A stretch of 23,496 nt of DNA, taken from contig JAYVCD010000267.1 in the NCBI GenBank assembly GCA_043750125.1, forward strand, positions 1 to 23,496, written 5' to 3'. A model generated the notes under the pieces. It saw nothing but the letters and a program-made list of their open reading frames with translations. It was not told where the DNA came from and ran no database searches. Positions within the stretch are counted from its first letter, which is position 1. The number at the start of each line of letters is the position of its first letter. Below, in pieces: positions 935-23,496 of the stretch. Made by a program: the position numbers and the translations under genes. This DNA is from Archangiaceae bacterium. GTDB lineage: Bacteria > Myxococcota > Myxococcia > Myxococcales > Myxococcaceae.

Positions 935-2415
935 GCGCGGTAGCGATTCCCGACACCTCGAAGCACCGGGGCGACACCACGATCGTCGAGCCGACCCACG
1001 GCCGCGAGCCGTTGATTCGCGGAACTCACACGTTCCACGACATCACCGAGATCGTCTGCCGGGTGAACGAAGCCGAGATCAAGAAGACTCCGCGCCCCTT
1101 CGTCTTCATGATTCTGCTCGCGGGCTCGCTGTTCGCGATGTTCGGCGGCTACGTCAGCTACCTCATCTGGGAAGGCCCGGGCATCTGGGGCAACAACAAC
1201 CCGGTCGGCTGGGCGTGGGACATCGTCAACTTCGTCTTCTGGGTCGGCATCGGCCACGCCGGGACGTTGATCTCGGCAATTCTGTATCTGTTCCGCCAGA
1301 AGTGGCGCACGTCGATCAACCGGTACGCCGAGGCGATGACCATCTTCGCGGTGCTCGCAGCCAGCTCGTGCGTGGCGCTGCACACCGGCCGGGTGTGGAT
1401 GGACTACTACCTGTTCCCGCTGCCGAACCAGATGGGGCTGTGGCCCAACTTCCGCTCGCCGCTCGAGTGGGACGTGTTTGCAGTGAATACCTACCTCGTG
1501 GTCTCGACCCTGTTTTGGTACACTGGCTTGGTTCCCGACTTCGCCACGCTGCGAGATCGCGCGAAGGTCCGCTGGCGCCAGCTGTTCTACGGCGCGCTGT
1601 CCCTGGGTTGGCGCGGCTCGATGCGCCACTGGGTGACGTACGAAAAGGCCTACCAGATTCTGGCCGCGTTCTCGGCGCCGCTGGTGCTCTCGGTTCACAC
1701 CATCGTCAGCTTCGACTTCGCCGTCTCACAGCTGCCCGGCTGGCACACCACCATCTTCCCCCCGTACTTCGTCGCCGGCGCCATCTTCTCGGGCTTCGCG
1801 ATGGTGCTCACCTTGATGATTCCCGCCCGTGAGTGGCTGGGGCTCAAGGACATCGTCACGATCAAGCACATCGAGAACATGAACAAGATCATCCTGCTCA
1901 CGGGAAGCCTGGTCGGCTACGCGTACGGAATGGAGTTCTTCGTCGCGGCCTACTCGGGCAACGAATACGAAGGCTTCACGTTCATCAACCGCAGCTTCGG
2001 CCCCTACGCCTGGGCCTACTGGATCATGGTCAGCTGCAACGTCATCACTCCGCAGCTGTTCTGGTTCAAGAAGATCCGCACCAACGTCGCGGCGACCTTC
2101 GTGCTGTCGATCTTCGTCAACATCGGAATGTGGTTCGAGCGGTTCGTCATCACCGTCACCTCGCTGCACCGCGACGCGCTGCCGTCGAGCTGGGACTACT
2201 TCGTCCCGGTGACCGAGGTGTTCTTCCTCGTCGGAACCTTCGGGCTGTTCCTCACTTTGTTCCTGCTCTTCGTGCGCTTCTTCCCGGCGATCGCGATGTC
2301 GGAAGTGAAGTCGGTGATGCCGCAGGCCAACCCGCACTGGGAAGGCTACGGGAAGGGCCACTCGCCCAACGGCCACTCGCATGTCGTCGCAGCGGTCGCT
2401 GAAGGGGGGCACTGA
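931..2415 (+). CDS. actC: ACIII quinol-binding membrane subunit ActC (NrfD/PsrC family)
   Basis: Polytopic hydrophobic protein with [45 protein letters not shown] and GMWFERFVI. Confidence 0.95.
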
Positions 2416-2417
2416 AC

Positions 2418-2966
2418 ATGGCCTCTTTGGAAAAAGCGCGGCTGTGGGGCGTGCTGGCGCAGTACGAGAATCCGGCTGAGATTTTTCACGCCTGCGAGAA
2501 GGTGCGCGACAGCGGGTATTCGAAGTGGGACGCCTGCGTTCCGTTTCCGGTGCACGGGCTGGACAAGGCGATGGGTGTGCCGCCCAGCCGTCTGCCGTGG
2601 ATCGTGCTGAGCGTTGGCTTGTTCGGCAGCGCCTTCATGCTGTTCTTCGAGAATTGGACGATGAGCGTCGCCTACCCGATCATCGTCGGCGGCAAGCCGC
2701 TGTTCTCGCTGCCCGCGTTCGTTCCGATCTGGTACGAAATTACGGTCTTGAGCAGCTGCCTCACCGCGTTCTTCGCCAACTGGGTGCTCAGCGGGCTGCC
2801 CCGGCCGCACCACCCGGCGTTCAATTCGAAGGCCTTCGAGCGCGCCACCGACGACAAGTTCTTCATCATGGTGGAAGCGACGGACCCGAAGTTCGACCTC
2901 GAGAGGACCAAGTCGCTCTTGAGCGATGCGGGCGCCTCTTCCGTCGAAGAGCTGGAGAACACATGA
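2418..2966 (+). CDS. actD: ACIII subunit ActD (DUF3341)
   Basis: PFPVHGLDKAMG, YPIIVGGKP and F-x-RATDDKFF motifs; two TM segments; position after actC. Confidence 0.92.
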   Translation: MASLEKARLWGVLAQYENPAEIFHACEKVRDSGYSKWDACVPFPVHGLDKAMGVPPSRLPWIVLSVGLFGSAFMLFFENWTMSVAYPIIVGGKPLFSLPAFVPIWYEITVLSSCLTAFFANWVLSGLPRPHHPAFNSKAFERATDDKFFIMVEATDPKFDLERTKSLLSDAGASSVEELENT

Positions 2967-3871
2967 GAGCCGCGCTCTTCGTTTCGCTGCTGCTCTTCTC
3001 GTCCTTGCTGGGCTGTCGCGGCGGCGAGTCTGACAAGCCGCCGGTTCACTTGAACCCCAACATGGACACCCAGGAAAAAGGGCGTGCCTACCGGCGCGAC
3101 ACCAGCGGGCTGTTCGCCGACGGTCGGGTGATGCGGGTGCCGGTCGAGGGCACGGTCGCCATCGGTCAGCTCGACGAAGACGACACGCTCTACGAAGGCA
3201 CCGACGCCGACGGAGGCGTCAGCGCGAAGTTCCCCGCATCGGTGGCGTTCACCGAAGACGCGGTGAAGGTCCACGGCAAGCTGCGTTACGACATCTACTG
3301 CGCGGTGTGCCACGGGGTGCTGGGCGACGGCAAAGGCCCGGTGGCGCTGAAGGGCGGCCTGATGGTGCCCCCGGCGAACTTTCAGGACGCCCGGCTCAAA
3401 GGCCTGTGCGTCGGAAAAATCTACAACGCGATCAAATACGGGGTGAACAACGGCAACATGCCGTCCTACGCAGCGCAGATTCCTGTCGAAGACCGTTGGG
3501 CGATCATCGCGTACCTGCGGCAACTGCAAGGCGTCGAGCCTCCGGAAAATTGCGACGGAATGGTCGTCGTTCCGGCCGCCAAGGTCGCGTCCGCCGAGCA
3601 TGGAGCGCTTCTATACAAGGCCAAGGGCTGCAACGCCTGTCACACCCTCGACGGCAACAGGCTGGTCGGCCCGACGTGGAAGGGCGCTTACGGCCGCAAA
3701 GAGCAGCTCACCGACGGCACCGAAGTGACGATCGACGACGCGTACCTCAAAGAGTCGATTCTCAAGCCGATGGCAAAGATCGTGATGGGTTACCCGCCCG
3801 CCATGCCGGTGCTGCCGCTGAACGACATCGAAGTCGATAGCCTCATCCTCTTCATCAAGGCGCAGCAATGA
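2963..3871 (+). CDS. actE: ACIII cytochrome c lipoprotein ActE with an extra C-terminal cytochrome c domain (2 CXXCH)
   Basis: Real start is ATG 2963 (ATGA overlap with the actD stop), not 2525 as in the ORF track. Lipobox LLG-C18; PPVHLNPNMDTQ and MRVPVEGTV; hemes CAVCH (3299-3313) and CNACH (3629-3643). Confidence 0.9.
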   Translation: MRAALFVSLLLFSSLLGCRGGESDKPPVHLNPNMDTQEKGRAYRRDTSGLFADGRVMRVPVEGTVAIGQLDEDDTLYEGTDADGGVSAKFPASVAFTEDAVKVHGKLRYDIYCAVCHGVLGDGKGPVALKGGLMVPPANFQDARLKGLCVGKIYNAIKYGVNNGNMPSYAAQIPVEDRWAIIAYLRQLQGVEPPENCDGMVVVPAAKVASAEHGALLYKAKGCNACHTLDGNRLVGPTWKGAYGRKEQLTDGTEVTIDDAYLKESILKPMAKIVMGYPPAMPVLPLNDIEVDSLILFIKAQQ

Positions 3872-16826: not shown

Positions 16827-17696
16827 CTAGCGCAGCCCCTGCGGTCCCCCCGTCGTTTTCTTCCTCGGAAAAACCATCACACAGGCGTCGGGGTGCGGGC
16901 ACACCAGGACGGTCAGGCTCGTGCCGGAAAGCTTGAGCGCCGGCCGGAACCAGGGCTCCTTGCGCAGGTCGTCATCGTTCGAGGCGAGCTCGGGCACCAC
17001 CAGGTCGAGCTCCAGGTAGCCGCCATCGGTCACGTTCGAAAGCGCTGGTCCAAACGAGTACGGCTCGAAGCCTTCCAGCGGCGCCAGGTCGTTATGGAGC
17101 GCGCCGCCATACAGAATCAGCATCTTGTCCGGCAGACCGCCTTCCCCTTTCTCGCGCACCTCGAGCGCCTTCTCTTCGACCTTCTTTCGCACCAACAGCA
17201 GGCTCTTCTCGGCGTCGAGGCTGCCGTCTTTCTCGAGCATCGAACGGTACTCCTCGCAGTCGAGAATCAAGATGTGGTTCGCGATCCCCAGCGCGTACGT
17301 CGCGTCGAGCAGCGTGGTGATTTCGTCCTCGGTGGCCTTGGGCCTTTGGGTCACCTTCTTCACTGCGGTTACCGCGGCCTTCTCGATGTCTCCGCAGCGG
17401 CCATTGGTCATCCAGGTCTCGACCACCAGGGAAGTGGCCTTCCCTTTGAGCGCCGGGAGCAACTGCTGAGTGAAGCGGGACAGCGTGCTCTTCACTTTCG
17501 GCCCCCCTTCAAGCGGGTGGTACTCGCCGAGCGCCAGCACGACGGGCGCGCGCTCGAGGACGCGGTCGAACGCGGCGCGCGGAGTCTTGAACGCTTCACA
17601 CCCGACGGGGCCGCACCAGGGGCCTGCATCGGGCACCGCGCTTAGAAGGCTGAGCGTGATGGGGAAAAAGGAAAGGAACACGGTCTCGACGTACAT
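16827..17696 (-). CDS. Hypothetical, probably exported protein (start may be GTG 17681)
   Basis: Long ORF with GC3-biased codons, hydrophobic N-terminus, PDAGP linker, motifs LALGEYH, LVVETW..GRCG and YGGALHND; co-oriented with the PhnD-like gene (12 nt gap). Confidence 0.7.
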   Translation of the reverse strand: MYVETVFLSFFPITLSLLSAVPDAGPWCGPVGCEAFKTPRAAFDRVLERAPVVLALGEYHPLEGGPKVKSTLSRFTQQLLPALKGKATSLVVETWMTNGRCGDIEKAAVTAVKKVTQRPKATEDEITTLLDATYALGIANHILILDCEEYRSMLEKDGSLDAEKSLLLVRKKVEEKALEVREKGEGGLPDKMLILYGGALHNDLAPLEGFEPYSFGPALSNVTDGGYLELDLVVPELASNDDDLRKEPWFRPALKLSGTSLTVLVCPHPDACVMVFPRKKTTGGPQGLR

Positions 17697-17704
17697 TGCG
17701 CGAA

Positions 17705-18526
17705 ATGGAAAGCAAAGTGGTGGTCATCACCGGAGCGAGCTCAGGCATCGGCGCGGCCCTCGCGAGGCAACTGGGCAAAGAAGGGCACCGGCTGGTTCTG
17801 GCCGCGCGACGCGAGGGGCCTTTGAATGCAGTGGCGGCTGCGAGCGGGCAGGCGAAGGCGCTCGTCACCGACGTGACGGTGCGGGCGGACGTAGAGCAGC
17901 TGCGGGTCGAAGCGATCAAAGCCTTCGGGCAGATTGACGTCTGGGTGAACAACGCCGGGCGGGGCATCGGCAAGCGGGTCCTCGAGCTGAGCGACGATGA
18001 CTTCGATCAGATGATGTCGGTCAACGTGAAGTCCGCGCTGTATGGGATTCAGGCGGTGGTCCCCCACTTTCTGCATCGGGGGGAAGGGCACCTGATCAAC
18101 GTCTCGTCGTTCCTCGGGCGGGTGCCGCTGGCCAGCTACCGGTCGGCGTACAACGCGGCGAAGGCGGCGCTCAACTCGCTGACCGCGAACCTGCGCATGG
18201 ATCTCGCGGCGAGCCACCCCAATGTGCACGTGTCGATCGTGATGCCCGGGCCGGTCTCGACCGAATTTTCCGGCTCGTCGCTGCATGGAACGCCGCAGCT
18301 GTCGCCCGCGCGAATGGTGGCTTCGCAGACGGCCGAAGAGGTGGCCGAGGTGATCGCCGGTTTGATCGAACAGCCGAGACCTGAGGTGTTCACCTCGCCG
18401 ACGCTGAAGTCGATGGCGAAGAAGTACTACGAGGACATTCCGGGTTTCGAGGCGGGAATGGGGGCGTCGTCACTGAGCGCTCCGGATCTCGCCGGGCTGG
18501 CCGAACGAATGAAGAATCGGCAGTAG
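17705..18526 (+). CDS. Classical SDR oxidoreductase
   Basis: ITGASSGIG, VNNAG, NVSS and YNAAK (YxxxK); likely ATG 17705. Confidence 0.88.
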   Translation: MESKVVVITGASSGIGAALARQLGKEGHRLVLAARREGPLNAVAAASGQAKALVTDVTVRADVEQLRVEAIKAFGQIDVWVNNAGRGIGKRVLELSDDDFDQMMSVNVKSALYGIQAVVPHFLHRGEGHLINVSSFLGRVPLASYRSAYNAAKAALNSLTANLRMDLAASHPNVHVSIVMPGPVSTEFSGSSLHGTPQLSPARMVASQTAEEVAEVIAGLIEQPRPEVFTSPTLKSMAKKYYEDIPGFEAGMGASSLSAPDLAGLAERMKNRQ

Positions 18527-18579
18527 CCGCGCGAAGGTCAGCCCCTGCTGCTGTGGTGCGCGGGTCCAGGGGGGGACTG

Positions 18580-19548
18580 ATGAAAATCGACGAAGGGGTC
18601 AGGCGGAAGGCGAAGCGGCAGTACGGGCTCATCAGTCGAGCTCAAGCGGTGGAACTCGGCTGCTCGTCGTCGGCGATCGACCGACGGCTGGGGTCGGGCG
18701 AGTGGGAGAAGATTTTCCCGAACGTGTATCGACTGGCGGGAGTGCCCGATTCTGCGCACCAGCGCGCGTTCGGCGCCTGCCTGGCGTTGGGCTCCAGCGC
18801 GGTGGCTTCGCACTCGACAGCGGCGTTTCTGTGGGGGCTGGACGGAACGGGAGCGCGCTTTCCAGAGCCGATTGAAGTGTCGGCGTCGCGAACGGTGAGG
18901 CGGAAGCTCGAAGGGGTGGTGGTTCACTACCCGAGGGACCTGGCGGCGGCGGGCAGGTCGCGTCGGCTGGAAATCCCGACGACGCACCTGGCGAGGACAT
19001 TGGTGGATCTGGCGGCGCAGGGGGACGCGCGGCACGTCGAGCGGGCCTTTGATTCGGCGTGGCGCCTGCGACCGGGCCTTCCTCAGTGGATGGCGAAGTA
19101 CGTGGCCGAGGTGGGAGCCCGAGGGAGGTCTGGGGTTCATCTGTTGCTGGCGATCGCACGCCGCAGGCAGGCGCGGCCGACGGACAGCGCGCACGAGGCC
19201 GACGTGTTGAGCAAGATTCGGCAGGCGCGGCTACCGGGGCCGACGTTGCAGCACGAAATCAGTGACGAACAAGGCTTCGTGGCGCGGGTCGACTTCGCGT
19301 GGGTAGCGCAGCGGGTGGTCCTGTTTGCCGACGGCTGGGGTCACCACCAGGGGCGGGAGTCGTTCGATCACGATCATGAACAGCGCGAGAGGTTGGCGGC
19401 GTGTGGCTGGACGTCGGTCGAGGTGTCGCCGCGCCTGGTGGAGGGCGGAAGCTGGTTGGCGGCGCTGACTCGGCATCTGAAGTCGAAGGGGGACGCGCCG
19501 AAAGCGAACCGCCCGGAAGTCCACGAAGCCCAGCGTTGCGGGCATTGA
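18580..19548 (+). CDS. AbiEi-like wHTH domain + DUF559/Vsr-like endonuclease domain protein
   Basis: N-terminal AKRQYGLISRAQAVELG...WEKIFPNVY; middle ASHSTAAFLWGL and ARTLVDLA; C-terminal QHEI...FVARVDFAW...VLFADGWGHH...L...GW. ATG 18580 follows AGGGGGGG. Confidence 0.82.
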   Translation: MKIDEGVRRKAKRQYGLISRAQAVELGCSSSAIDRRLGSGEWEKIFPNVYRLAGVPDSAHQRAFGACLALGSSAVASHSTAAFLWGLDGTGARFPEPIEVSASRTVRRKLEGVVVHYPRDLAAAGRSRRLEIPTTHLARTLVDLAAQGDARHVERAFDSAWRLRPGLPQWMAKYVAEVGARGRSGVHLLLAIARRRQARPTDSAHEADVLSKIRQARLPGPTLQHEISDEQGFVARVDFAWVAQRVVLFADGWGHHQGRESFDHDHEQRERLAACGWTSVEVSPRLVEGGSWLAALTRHLKSKGDAPKANRPEVHEAQRCGH

Positions 19549-19708
19549 ACGGGGAAAGAACTGCGCACTGGTGAGAGTTGCCCCCAGTGGTGCGGGATAC
19601 CACCGGGGCGCGACGCTAAACGACACCAGTGGGGGTAACTCTCACCAGAACCCAGGAAAAGCCCTGTTCCCGCCAATGCCCAGGGGACAACAGAACCTTC
19701 GGCGACGC
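19535..19708. repeat. Structured palindromic repeat element, copy A
   Basis: 25-bp inverted repeat 19568-19592/19624-19648 (23/25 Watson-Crick) with 31-nt loop; outer arms GGGCATTG 19540-19547 and CAATGCCC 19674-19681; colinear homology with 22912-23167. Confidence 0.85.
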
Positions 19709-19796
19709 CTGTCCCAAGCTTCGCCGCGCGGCCAGACAAAAAGGTGACGACGCCCGCACCGAGTCGCACCCCGCCGTGGCCTGAAGCTCAGACGCG

Positions 19797-21293
<1,497 letters not shown>

Positions 21294-21333
21294 GGGCCGG
21301 GACATTACTCCTGCGGGTGTACGCTGCGCGTCC

Positions 21334-21666
21334 ATGAGCAATCCGGCGACGGGCGATGTGACGTTCGATACCGAAGTGGTGAAGCTGCTGCTGCAGGTCG
21401 CGTGGGCGGACGACGAAGTCAGCGCGCGCGAGCGAGCGATGATCTTCGGCCTGGCGCGCAGCTGGTTCGTGCCCGAGCCCGAGCTCAAAGTGTTGCTGCA
21501 GCGATTGGATCAAGGACAGCCGCTGCCGCAGCCGAACCTGAAGCTGCTGCGCACCCGCGTCGATGACGTGATGGAAGCGGTGCGGGGCGTGGTGCTCAGC
21601 GACGGCAAGGTCGCGGAGGAAGAGTCCGCGATGATTCAGCAGATTCTCGAGCTGCTCAAAGGCTGA
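21334..21666 (+). CDS. TerB-family protein
   Basis: Two TerB-type acidic motifs, VAWADDEVSARE and VLSDGKVAEEE; ATG 21334. Confidence 0.8.
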   Translation: MSNPATGDVTFDTEVVKLLLQVAWADDEVSARERAMIFGLARSWFVPEPELKVLLQRLDQGQPLPQPNLKLLRTRVDDVMEAVRGVVLSDGKVAEEESAMIQQILELLKG

Positions 21667-21668
21667 TT

Positions 21669-22679
21669 TTAGCTGCGCAGGACGGTCGCGAGGCCGAAGT
21701 GGGGGAACAGCTTCGGCTCGAGGAATGAGGTGATTTCGACGACCCGTCCTCCGACGCACTCGACGACCTGCAGCGCGTTGGGGCGGAACTCGCCGCCGGC
21801 CGAGTCTTTCTTGTAGATCGCAAAAGCGCCCTGGCCATTGGCGCGAATGGGCAGTGCTTTGTAGAGCCCCCTGGCCGCGGGGGTGAGGGCCACGGTGCCG
21901 AGGGCAGAGCCGATCGATTGGGCGCCTTTGAACCAGGCTTCGAAGGGCGGCATCGACATCACCGCGTCCTCGTGGAGCAGGGGAACCAGCGCGGGGACAT
22001 CGGTGCTTTCCCAGGCCTGCTGGTAGCGGGCGAGCAGCGCCTGGGTCGCTTCGTCTTCCATCGCGGCCGCCCGTTCTTTGCGCGACTTGTCGCCGCGGGA
22101 CAGGGTCTCTCTCGCGCGCTGAAGGGCGCTGGTGACGGCGGGCAAGGCCAGCTGCAGCAGGTCGGCGCAGTCCGCTGCGGCCCAACCGAGGACGTCTCTG
22201 AGAATGACTCCGGCGCGCTGCTTCGCCGGCAGTTGCTGAAGTGCGGCGAGGAACGACAGCGCGACGGATTCCCGAGCGGTGTACCGGGCGTCAGGCGAGC
22301 GGGCCGCCTCGACGAGGATGTCTTCCGGAGCGGGCTCGACCCACAGCGCCTCGGCGCGCGGGGTCAAGGGAGTTCCAGGCTCGGTGGGGCGGCCGAAGCC
22401 GACCGGCAGGGCGCGGGTCTTTCGTGAGTCGACGGCATCGAGACACGCCGAGGTCGTCACCTTGTAAAGCCAGACGCGCACGCTGGGCCCTTCGAAGGCA
22501 TTGATGCTCCGCCAGGCCTTGGCGAGGCTTCCCTGAAGCAGGTCTTCGGCGTCGCGAATCGAGCCCGACATCCGGTAGCAATGGGCCTTCAACTCACGAC
22601 GGTAAGGCTCGACCAGACGGTCGAATGCTGAGCGATCTCCAGCTCGTGCAGCCGCCACGCTTTCGGTTTCGGGAATCAT
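21669..22679 (-). CDS. ECF sigma-70 factor with C-terminal SnoaL-like domain (SigG/ECF56-like)
   Basis: Start MIPETE (22679). HCYRMSGSIRDAEDLLQ and WLYKVTT (sigma2); RESVALSFLAALQQLPAKQRAGVILRDVLGW (sigma4); LLHEDAVMSMPP and ANGQGAFAIY (SnoaL-like). Confidence 0.9.
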   Translation of the reverse strand: MIPETESVAAARAGDRSAFDRLVEPYRRELKAHCYRMSGSIRDAEDLLQGSLAKAWRSINAFEGPSVRVWLYKVTTSACLDAVDSRKTRALPVGFGRPTEPGTPLTPRAEALWVEPAPEDILVEAARSPDARYTARESVALSFLAALQQLPAKQRAGVILRDVLGWAAADCADLLQLALPAVTSALQRARETLSRGDKSRKERAAAMEDEATQALLARYQQAWESTDVPALVPLLHEDAVMSMPPFEAWFKGAQSIGSALGTVALTPAARGLYKALPIRANGQGAFAIYKKDSAGGEFRPNALQVVECVGGRVVEITSFLEPKLFPHFGLATVLRS

Positions 22680-22911
22680 TCGCGCACCTTTACCCCAAAA
22701 CTCAAACCCGGTCGGCCGCAGCCTTCGGTCGTCTCGCGTCGAGGATTCAGTAAACGGCTGCCGGCATCGGCGCCCCCCTTCCGGCTTTTCGCTGGTGGCC
22801 GCTGCTGGATCCAGGGGGGAAGTCCACCCGCATGCGGCATGGGACGCCCCCTTTCCCCCCTCGAAGGACGCAGCGCGGCTCGGCAGCAGGGGTAAGACGC
22901 CCTCGGTCGGA

Positions 22912-23167
22912 GTTGCGGGCACTGACGGGTTGGTAGGACCTTGGAATACGCCCTTTCGGGGCTGCGGCGGCGCGAACTGGTGAGAACTACCCCCAGTGGT
23001 GTGGATTACCACTGCATTTCGACGGTGGCTGACACCACCGGGGGTGGTTCTCACCAGTGAGGGAAGAGAAGGCAGCCTGAAGCGCACGCAGACCGAGGCT
23101 GAGGCACCCAGAGGGGACAGCCCTTTTTCCGCCAATGCCCAACGAAGATCCAAAAATTCGCCGACGC
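22912..23167. repeat. Structured palindromic repeat element, copy B (no adjacent nuclease gene)
   Basis: 27-bp inverted repeat 22976-23002/23032-23058 (25/27 Watson-Crick); same 81-nt core as copy A; shared flanking blocks at 22912-22929, 23119-23141 and 23157-23167. Confidence 0.85.
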
Positions 23168-23191
23168 TCGGCTTCGGCAGGAAACCTGGCT

Positions 23192-23496
23192 CTACGGCAG
23201 GTTCGACTTCAGGTCTTTGAGCACGCGCCTGCCCTCGACGAAGCCGTCCCACTTCGGGTCAACGCCTTTCCTCTTCGCAGTCGCAAGCCAGCGGGTGAGG
23301 GCGGGAATCAGCTGGGTCGAACCCGACACGGCGCAGGCCTCGAGCAGCAGGTCCCAATGGGCGACGCGGGGGGCCACGAGCAGGCGTTCGAGCACGGCGG
23401 CGGCGCGGGGGTCGGCACATTTGGCGAGCACGGCGAGGCCAATCTCGTCGTCCCACGAGCGACCGAGGTCGTCTTTCGCCGCCGCGCAGCGATCGA
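23192..23496 (-). CDS. C-terminal fragment of a hypothetical helical (HEAT-like?) protein, truncated by window edge
   Basis: Frame stays open to the window end (DRCAAAKDDLGRSWDDEIGLAVLAKCADPRAAAVLERLL...GSTQLIPALTRW); DPRA..L and ..LIPAL resemble HEAT repeats. Confidence 0.55.
   Translation of the reverse strand, partial: DRCAAAKDDLGRSWDDEIGLAVLAKCADPRAAAVLERLLVAPRVAHWDLLLEACAVSGSTQLIPALTRWLATAKRKGVDPKWDGFVEGRRVLKDLKSNLP

Follow-up and report, generated by a model that had tools for sequence, protein, structure and literature searches.

Two foldback elements on a myxobacterial contig are probable members of a lineage-restricted family of modular DNA repeats

We found that two nested-hairpin elements, A and B, on a 23,496-nucleotide contig of an Archangiaceae bacterium (the whole contig is referred to here as the window) probably belong to one lineage-restricted family of modular foldback DNA repeats, non-coding and of the general REPIN, MITE or BIME kind, a reading to which we give a probability of roughly 0.7. 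The elements are present in many copies, lie between genes, are assembled from modules, are absent from orthologous sites and carry no strand-specific RNA signatures. We infer that the repeats are or have been mobile, by a route proposed below. A dedicated RNA is the less likely interpretation. In enterobacteria and pseudomonads, palindromic repeats scattered through the genome have been studied in detail. A full-text search of the literature returned no dispersed palindromic repeats described for Myxococcota, and none tied to DUF559 or AbiEi genes.

The features of both elements and of the gene beside A are collected in Table 1. Four colinear blocks had been proposed for A and B by the first-pass annotation, and all four are where it placed them, with block 4 starting exactly 15 nt past block 3 in both copies. 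The spacers of B are longer than those of A, the first by 33 nt (47 versus 14 nt) and the second by 50 nt (61 versus 11 nt). The swapped base pairs are likewise as described, with GT/AC in A and AC/GT in B at columns 15-16 and 77-78. The outer stem between blocks 1 and 3 is less secure than first described: A has it in its minimum-energy fold, whereas B does not. The limits first given to A and B proved too narrow, since other copies show longer elements.

Table 1. Features of elements A and B and of the adjoining gene (positions in the window)
Feature	Position	Strand	Remarks
Gene for a 331-aa protein	18553..19548	+	AbiEi-like DNA-binding N-terminal part and Vsr/EDxHD-like (DUF559) nuclease domain, both predicted
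Gene and element A	18527..19796	.	Absent from the orthologous site in same-genus genome G004
Element A, first-pass limits	19535-19708		Extent about 19490-19714 by comparison with other copies
Outer left arm of A	19490..19534	+	Overlaps the last codons of the gene; common to copies on C207, C434 and C300
Block 1 of A	19535..19553	+	Left terminal motif GTTGCGGGCATTGAACGGG; inverted counterpart of block 3
Central hairpin H of A	19568..19648	+	81 nt; covariance model 86.1 bits
Right arm of A	19654..19714	+	Arm profile match E=2.6e-10; includes blocks 3 and 4
Block 3 of A	19660-19682		CCCGCCAATGCCC; inside the right arm
Block 4 of A	19698-19708		Inside the right arm
Element B, first-pass limits	22912-23167		Extent about 22897-23173 by comparison with other copies
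Left arm of B	22897..22971	+	Block 1 (22912-22929) and an L1 extension, absent from A
Central hairpin H of B	22977..23057	+	81 nt; covariance model 88.4 bits
Inner right spacer of B	23058..23111	+	GAAGCGCACGC module, absent from A
Right arm of B	23112..23173	+	Arm profile match E=2.4e-7; block 3 at 23119-23141, block 4 at 23157-23167

The likeness of A and B is beyond chance (E=1.2e-9 by nhmmer of A against B, over the whole genome). Their 81-nt cores are identical at 59 of 81 positions and their third blocks at 21 of 23. The core arms are inverted repeats of 32 nt with 84% complementarity and a 31-nt gap in A, and of 27 nt with 93% complementarity and a 29-nt gap in B. When folded as DNA the copies gave z-scores of -4.41 (A) and -2.65 (B), and none of 200 shuffles of either copy folded as well. 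In the DNA fold of A the outer left arm pairs with the block 4 region, and its hairpin carries a conserved, off-centre apical motif, ACC..CG..CGACG. Contigs from four DNA sequencing runs confirmed the assembly across both elements, and no element-less joint was observed. The flanks of A and B outside the borders in Table 1 are not repeated elsewhere in the genome at E<1e-3. A resemblance of the right flank of A to contigs C12 and C197, seen by eye, was unsupported at the same threshold.

Searches of the 6.17-Mb, 460-contig genome with nhmmer located the 81-nt hairpin at 16 loci, together with two half copies. A covariance model returned 32 matches, which are the same 16 loci read on both strands. 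At every one of these loci the arms are inverted, 25-32 nt long and separated by a spacer of about 30 nt. An arm profile built on the right arm, the flanking arm with CCAATGCCC, matched 19 places, seven of which have no hairpin. All copies lie between unrelated housekeeping genes, and all 16 hairpin loci are outside high-GC3 open reading frames. The 24 neighbouring open reading frames encode unrelated domains (G6PD, EutB, carboxylase, peptidases and others), with no transposase among them. This dispersal of 16 hairpin loci and 19 arm copies among unrelated intergenic neighbours supports the suggestion, also made in the first pass, of a REPIN- or MITE-like mobile unit.

The four blocks reduce more naturally to three modules (terminal inverted motif, central hairpin and distal arm) that are reused and combined differently in other copies. 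Subfamily 1 has the layout arm-H-arm and subfamily 2 the layout X-(Y)-H-arm', and the modules H (16 loci), right arm (19), L1, X (10) and Y (16) are found in varied combinations. Subfamily 1 carries the terminal inverted motif, as does a genome of another genus discussed below (G012), and subfamily 2 has it on one side only. The left arm of B aligns with C434, C207 and C453 (76% over 141 nt for C434), and its GAAGCGCACGC spacer is common to C415, C232, C396, C453, C135 and C272. On C59 both arms are present around a different centre. Copies in this genome differ in how far their likeness runs past the terminal inverted motif, and their ends are ragged and not sharp. Three copies are cut by contig ends, as would fit a mobile unit; these, on C434, C415 and C232, finish in a 90-nt stretch that is 100% identical in all of them, and C415 shares 88% identity with C232 over 252 nt, as recent copying would leave. 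A separate multi-copy insertion sequence, with termini that differ from those of the repeats, lies at 21 contig ends. The repeats and this insertion sequence explain many of the contig breaks in the assembly.

We compared the window with orthologous sites in same-genus genomes, which lack the inserts. In G004, window positions 17691-18526 align to positions 652-1487 of locus L149 and positions 19804-21659 to positions 1502-3368. Two stop codons are 5 nt apart there, at a place where our genome has 1270 nt. No target-site duplication was readable at the orthologous loci; for the A site against G004 the flanks are only about 80% identical. At site B, G003 has 170 nt and our genome 529 nt. The G003 site is not cleanly empty, and a degenerate right-arm-like stretch may be present.

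The family is narrowly distributed. BLAST with B gave no match in 40 relatives, and BLAST with a full 481-nt copy gave none in 200 family genomes. The covariance model matched four of 120 family genomes, among which the convincing matches, all diverged, are two copies in G054 and one in G001. An exact pattern retrieved a single record among GTDB representatives, which is G054. In metagenomes a strict pattern had no matches; a loose one had 98, and none of the 80 fetched and scored exceeded 22.2 bits. A covariance-model match in G022 (31 bits) was dropped since it lies in repetitive coding-like sequence, and one on contig C40 of G004 (35 bits) consists of a different unit repeated in tandem and was not counted as a member.

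The stems are compensated across genera. In the cross-genera alignment 84.5% of cells are paired versus 33-50% when the partner is slid, and both partners have changed in 18 of 35 stem pairs. Covariation scores 0.252, compared with 0.143 in shuffles, none of 500 of which scored as high. Within our genome alone covariation is modest (nine of 500 shuffles score at least as high), and pairs in which both partners have changed are no more numerous than in shuffles. An alignment mixing both strands of each copy was left out of these counts. The family exceeds two copies and covaries, and a gathering-score scan of the whole window against Rfam gave no matches; the first-pass reading had been open to refutation on each of these points. 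Its statement that fold is conserved more than sequence is true, but palindromic DNA with arms that correct each other would look alike.

A structured non-coding RNA family, which had been offered as an alternative, would consist of small RNAs or 3'-UTR elements transcribed in the + orientation, as set by the loop, and acting through their fold and the conserved apical CGACGG. We consider it unlikely. The very stable hairpin and its compensated stems would suit such an RNA, as would the asymmetric, sequence-conserved loop with its CGACGG motif in constant orientation relative to the right arm. The given strand also scores 9 to 31 bits above the opposite strand in own-genome copies, with a covariance model that was itself built on the given strand. 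However, stem mismatches comprise 28 G:U and 24 A:C, with no strand bias. The element follows a co-oriented gene in six of the 12 copies with a called left neighbour and an oppositely oriented one in the other six, as far as crude ORF calls can tell, and the neighbour genes are unrelated, with no common gene context. No promoter-like site was found beside A or B; a scan for intrinsic terminators gave nothing at the central hairpin of either element, and no U-tract follows it. E-value scans of both copies against Rfam returned no family; the best sub-threshold matches, to miRNA-type hairpins, reached 25 bits where the cut-offs are 70-104. Near-absence of the repeat family even within the same genus, and modules shuffled between copies, also argue against a dedicated RNA.

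Host use of the repeats as BIME-type cis elements, which as DNA or within mRNAs would stop transcription in both directions, stabilise mRNA 3' ends or bind nucleoid proteins and would be kept for this and not as selfish DNA, seems to us quite improbable. The mosaic make-up is BIME-like, A and the copies on C109, C272 and C337 lie between convergent genes, and in 11 of 14 copies the gene to the right points towards the element. This orientation bias is not significant (two-sided binomial p=0.057) and the ORF calls depend on the GC3 filter. Read on the minus strand, block 4 of B gives a hairpin and T-run that resemble a terminator and lie 20 nt past the stop of the neighbouring gene, but terminator-like sites in the region are as many as expected from shuffles (3 versus 3.0), and orthologous gene pairs of the same genus manage without the element. 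A long hairpin flanked by inverted repeats also recalls the msDNA genes of myxobacteria, which would make the elements retron-like msr/msd units or other hairpin DNA templated by a reverse transcriptase. We give this next to no weight, as it is contradicted by the absence of adjacent reverse transcriptase genes. RVT_1 was found at three loci (C167:12626-13267, C19 and C90), none within 5 kb of a hairpin copy and the nearest 5.9 kb away, on C167, and sixteen dispersed copies lacking a neighbouring reverse transcriptase gene are a poor fit.

Modular foldback DNA repeats are thus the reading we prefer, and the gene beside A may bear on how they spread. Its TGA stop (19546-19548) falls within the left terminal motif GGGCATTGA of A. 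Pfam assigns the 331-aa product to AbiEi_4 (1.2e-9), and DUF559 scored 20.4 bits, 0.2 under the cut-off of 20.6. The AlphaFold model has a pLDDT of 87, with the final 15 or so residues disordered. With this model Foldseek retrieved AbiEi (6y8q, E=6e-6) and Rv2827c (1zel, E=1e-4), as well as Vsr (1cw0, E=0.022) and I-Bth0305I (3r3p, E=0.04, TM 0.63 on the target). Probabilities for 1cw0, 3r3p and 1vsr were 0.99-1.00, and 1.00 for the first two of these. A profile of 15 homologues also matched 3r3p (E=0.029). S212, E215, P230, D247 and H265 are invariant in the 15 homologues and D274 is nearly so. The modelled C-terminal domain thus has the Vsr-like fold and the conserved acidic and histidine residues of an EDxHD/Vsr-type nuclease. 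An NCBIfam search and a direct PDB sequence search with the protein returned nothing. Published work assigns DUF559 to the same PD-(D/E)XK group as Vsr and a group I intron homing endonuclease (PMC3424549; PMC3239194). Genes combining AbiEi_4 and DUF559 occur in 27 of 61 genomes of the bacterial family, a tally that takes in one unpublished genome (G068), at one to seven copies each. The neighbours of the gene are an SDR gene and a DUF362 gene, and no AbiEii toxin gene is next to it.

We suggest, tentatively and as a possibility that we rate below even odds, that the foldback repeats and the AbiEi-like/Vsr-EDxHD-like nuclease genes may form an undescribed two-part selfish system, in which the nuclease, the best candidate partner, would be a free-standing homing-type enzyme that targets the dispersed elements and becomes copied into them or next to them, or else a helper that spreads them as RAYTs spread REPINs. 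The absence of both the gene and element A from the G004 site, with the stop codon inside the motif, counts toward such a partnership. A decayed copy of the same junction of gene end and element is present on C207 (76% identity over 150 nt), and a paralogue on C124 has a right-arm-like motif 17 nt past its stop. In G001, of the same genus, the arm motif lies at 28 nt and 125 nt in two of the three homologues that have downstream sequence.

In G012, a complete genome of another genus, six of six paralogues touch an analogous foldback family with termini GGCTTTGATTGGGG...CCCCAATCAAAGCC, whose arm query had at least 41 matches. Five non-self matches lie no more than about 500 nt from other paralogues, against an expectation of 0.04 to 0.18 (P 1e-9 to 1e-6). 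The stop codon of one paralogue is again within the terminal motif, and one gene, d, is flanked by a left and a right arm, in the position that the central hairpin takes in other copies. The terminal motif was not seen near homologues in 19 other genera, with one locus sampled in each, nor near 14 paralogues of G046 and G071. Long palindromes were present downstream at only eight of 48 loci, and a general link between the nuclease family and palindromes was not found beyond the two genera. A further point against the partnership is that the nuclease alone leaves spread to new sites unexplained. If the link is true, AbiEi_4 plus DUF559 genes of unknown function gain a testable role, and the pairing of nuclease and repeat is a new one.

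We propose that the unit combines a long central hairpin with inner arms that vary in length and with the terminal inverted motif, whose left form is GGGCATTGA/G...CGGG and whose right form is CCCGCCAATGCCC, and that such units would have been copied to many intergenic sites of the genome. The arms may stay complementary through a copying machinery that recognises hairpin or cruciform DNA, or through correction of the palindrome arms against each other. The adjacent nuclease gene family could contribute a homing-type nuclease acting on the elements, or a helper resembling RAYT. AbiEi proteins bind inverted repeats.

Parts of this arrangement resemble known systems. The N-terminal 200 or so residues of the protein match the AbiEi antitoxin of type IV toxin-antitoxin systems in fold and by Pfam AbiEi_4; unlike that antitoxin, the protein also has a predicted nuclease domain and no AbiEii toxin gene alongside. 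In the model its C-terminal domain matches I-Bth0305I and Vsr in fold. The gene differs in that it is free-standing and lies in no intron or intein, and in that its predicted nuclease is fused to an AbiEi-like DNA-binding part. Like enterobacterial BIMEs, the repeats are intergenic mosaics of several short modules, some palindromic and some not, but they have no sequence relation to BIMEs and their palindromes are much longer. IHF, gyrase and Pol I binding are BIME properties, none of which is known to us for these repeats.

Foldback MITEs of DDE insertion sequences share with the repeats their small size, lack of an open reading frame, ability to fold back and intergenic position; their terminal inverted motifs have a counterpart in subfamily 1 and in G012, and gene d of G012 would be a possible gene-carrying form with the same termini. 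Unlike MITEs, five cleanly bounded G012 copies have no target-site duplication. We found no autonomous element with matching termini in our genome, and no such insertion sequence in the 1.5 kb around any copy. No DDE transposase shares the termini; IS30-like genes inside two G012 copies have their own, different inverted repeats.

The repeats also resemble REPINs and their RAYT. Both kinds of repeat are non-coding, extragenic, present in tens of copies and lineage-restricted, and in both two inverted arms form a long hairpin with compensated stems and a protein gene is flanked by repeats. A search for Y1_Tnp (PF01797) that matched six of 14 control genomes had no matches in ours, whose 89.4% completeness leaves absence unproven. 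The repeat family shows a REPIN-like life style without a detectable RAYT. Relative to REPINs, the units here are larger (220-480 nt), nested and modular, and where RAYT is a single-copy Y1 transposase, the candidate partner is a multi-copy AbiEi-like and Vsr/EDxHD-like nuclease.

We found the four colinear blocks of copies A (19535-19708) and B (22912-23167) where the first-pass annotation had placed them. The 81-nt cores are identical at 59 of 81 positions, block 3 matches at 21/23 as had been stated, and blocks 3 and 4 lie 15 nt apart in both copies. The spacers of B exceed those of A by 33 and 50 nt (about 32 and 50 by the earlier count), and two adjacent stem pairs are, as described, exchanged between A and B with pairing retained. 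Each core is a long inverted repeat. The likeness between A and B was far above chance in a whole-genome nhmmer search (E=1.2e-9), and when folded as DNA they gave z-scores of -4.41 (A) and -2.65 (B), with 0/200 shuffles equally stable for each. A minus-strand gene ends at 23192; 20 nt past its stop, block 4 of B, read on that strand, makes a 5-bp hairpin of terminator type with a T-run.

The source genome assembly comprises 460 contigs (6.17 Mb, 89.4% complete), of which the window is C267. Iterated nhmmer searches of it revealed further copies, the hairpin being present at 16 loci together with two half copies, and a covariance model built from 14 hairpin copies recovered these 16 loci, each on both strands. 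Three copies, which have 90 identical nt in common, are truncated by contig ends and a fourth is interrupted by an unrelated insertion sequence. Two subfamilies can be told apart among the hairpin copies. Subfamily 1, with A and B among its 11 loci, is arranged as left arm, hairpin and right arm, and its left motif (GGGCATTGA/G.CGGG) corresponds to CCCGCCAATGCCC inverted; C453 and C396 are the longest copies, and in them a single imperfect palindrome spans the whole ~350-480 nt. Subfamily 2 (~520 nt per unit, 5 loci) combines module X, in some cases hairpin Y, the central hairpin of subfamily 1 and a single arm with CCACCCGTTCAATGCAAACGGGC. The right arm (CCCTTTTCCCGCCAATGCCC...GAACCTTCGCCGACGC) occurs 19 times, at 7 of them with the hairpin absent. 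Module X (10 occurrences) and hairpin Y (16 loci) are each also found away from the central hairpin, and C59 carries both arms of C396 around a different centre. Given this sharing of modules among copies, the blocks are therefore reusable modules, with A representing a short form of the element and B a longer form. In the solo left arm on C300 a reading frame terminates (...RCGH*) within the motif, just as happens in A and C207.

Coordinates of repeat modules and neighboring features
Feature	Position	Description
Hairpin Y	e.g. C43:9662-9714, C337:22821-22873, C319:7405-7456	Further repeat family; 57 nt, GACCTTG.CC...ACCACA...TGTGGT...CAAGGTC
Module X	e.g. C231:14385-14506	Further repeat family; 123 nt
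Solo left arm	C300:7442-7540 (source genome)	First 19 nt identical to block 1 of A, then the L1 extension (in B, not A); no hairpin
Terminator-like hairpin, copy B	window 23160-23172, minus strand	
Mid-stem mismatch	window 19591/19634	Alignment columns 25 and 68
Contig-end insertion sequence	e.g. C207:1-76, C3:1-98, C19:1-98	
IS30-like genes	G012:C1:4579765-4581919 (L243), 4083539-4086550 (L244)	HTH_38 + rve
Repeat-flanked paralogue	G071:C222:12424-14726 (L222)	
Tandem array	G004:C40, about 25700-26100 (L034)	~115-nt units

All hairpin copies lie clear of high-GC3 ORFs. In the 24 flanking ORFs that were examined, the domains were unrelated and of housekeeping type, and no transposase was found. 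By ORF calls from a crude GC3 filter, the left neighbor is co-oriented with the element in 6/12 copies, orientations being mixed, and the right neighbor converges on it in 11/14 (p=0.057). At the site of A, the flanking SDR and DUF362 genes of the same-genus genome G004 have stop codons 5 nt apart; their 1270-nt separation in the source genome consists of the AbiEi/DUF559 gene plus element A. The spacer holding B measures 529 nt, versus 170 nt in G003 (same genus), where a degenerate arm-like stretch may persist, so that the site is not cleanly empty. An unassembled multi-copy insertion sequence lies at 21 contig ends of the source genome, with two kinds of end, in each of which the 14-nt site GGTGGATCAGTTTC is doubled and the terminus reads ...CCGGATCA. 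The C207 hairpin is interrupted by one copy of this insertion sequence; its remaining ends lie in unrelated sequence, and the repeats are therefore seemingly not its target.

BLAST with B matched 0/40 relatives, and with a full 481-nt copy 0/200 family genomes. The covariance model gave matches in 4/120 other family genomes, of which inspection retained G054, with two copies scoring 60.6 and 45.8 bits, and G001 from the same genus (42 bits); G001 additionally has the CCAATGCCC arm. The G022 match was discarded, and that on G004:C40 was assigned to another repeat, a tandem array with a hairpin CCACTGGTGAC...GTCACCACTGGGG, similar to the core arms, in each unit. An exact-pattern scan of species representatives returned the G054 record only, and metagenome scans gave no convincing match.

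Both a REPIN/MITE-like mobile unit and a structured non-coding RNA had been offered as readings. In the alignment including the two G054 copies, 84.5% of cells are paired versus 33-50% with the partner slid, 18/35 pairs are altered on both sides, and stem covariation, as had been claimed, scored above 500/500 shuffles; within the source genome alone the signal is modest. No strand bias is seen among stem mismatches (28 G:U versus 24 A:C), a result that fits a DNA palindrome and is unlike an RNA under selection on one strand. No terminator tail was found. What keeps the RNA reading alive is the apical motif ACC..CG..CGACGG, conserved in both sequence and orientation, which also suggests a putative protein recognition site. 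A mid-stem mismatch is retained in 11/16 copies, mostly as C opposite C, as G opposite G in A, and paired in both G054 copies; a founder effect could account for it, as could a role in recognition. The Rfam search proposed in the first-pass annotation matched no family, and neither an Rfam entry nor, in full-text literature, a description was found. We conclude that A and B belong to a real, multi-copy, modular family of foldback repeats of the REPIN/MITE/BIME kind, confined to one lineage.

How this foldback family spreads is a matter of proposal, with the AbiEi/DUF559 nuclease gene upstream of A as a candidate partner; no Y1 transposase gene was found in the source genome, itself 89.4% complete. 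The stop codon of the nuclease gene falls within the left terminal motif of A, and C207 retains a decayed copy of this junction. An arm-like motif lies 17 nt past the stop of paralogue C124, and in G001 an arm motif is present at 2/3 homologues having downstream sequence. G012, a closed genome of another genus, contains analogous foldback elements (330-400 nt, termini GGCTTTGATTGGGG...CCCCAATCAAAGCC, variable centres). There, 6/6 AbiEi/DUF559 paralogues adjoin an arm, one with its stop codon within the terminal motif and one between left and right arms; 5 hits were observed versus 0.04-0.18 expected by chance. Two G012 foldback elements contain IS30-like transposase genes with their own inverted repeats GGTCATCGCAAC, a sequence that gene-less elements also have in their right arm. 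The gene-repeat link is not general. We found no terminal motif near homologues in 19 other genera or at the 14 paralogues of G046 and G071, and long palindromes lie downstream of homologues at just 8/48 loci. One G071 paralogue lies between 241-nt direct repeats (94% identity), each with a 44-nt palindrome.

Of the leads, the nuclease gene-repeat link is the most interesting. By Pfam, Foldseek and profile search, the gene product joins an AbiEi-like DNA-binding part to a Vsr/EDxHD-like nuclease domain. With the structure model (pLDDT 87, last ~15 residues disordered), Foldseek matched AbiEi 6y8q (E=6e-6) and both Vsr 1cw0 and I-Bth0305I 3r3p (probability 1.00 each); 3r3p was also matched by profile search against the PDB (E=0.029). 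I-Bth0305I is a homing endonuclease according to PMC3239194 and PMC9403480, and PMC3424549 places DUF559, Vsr and a homing endonuclease in one group.
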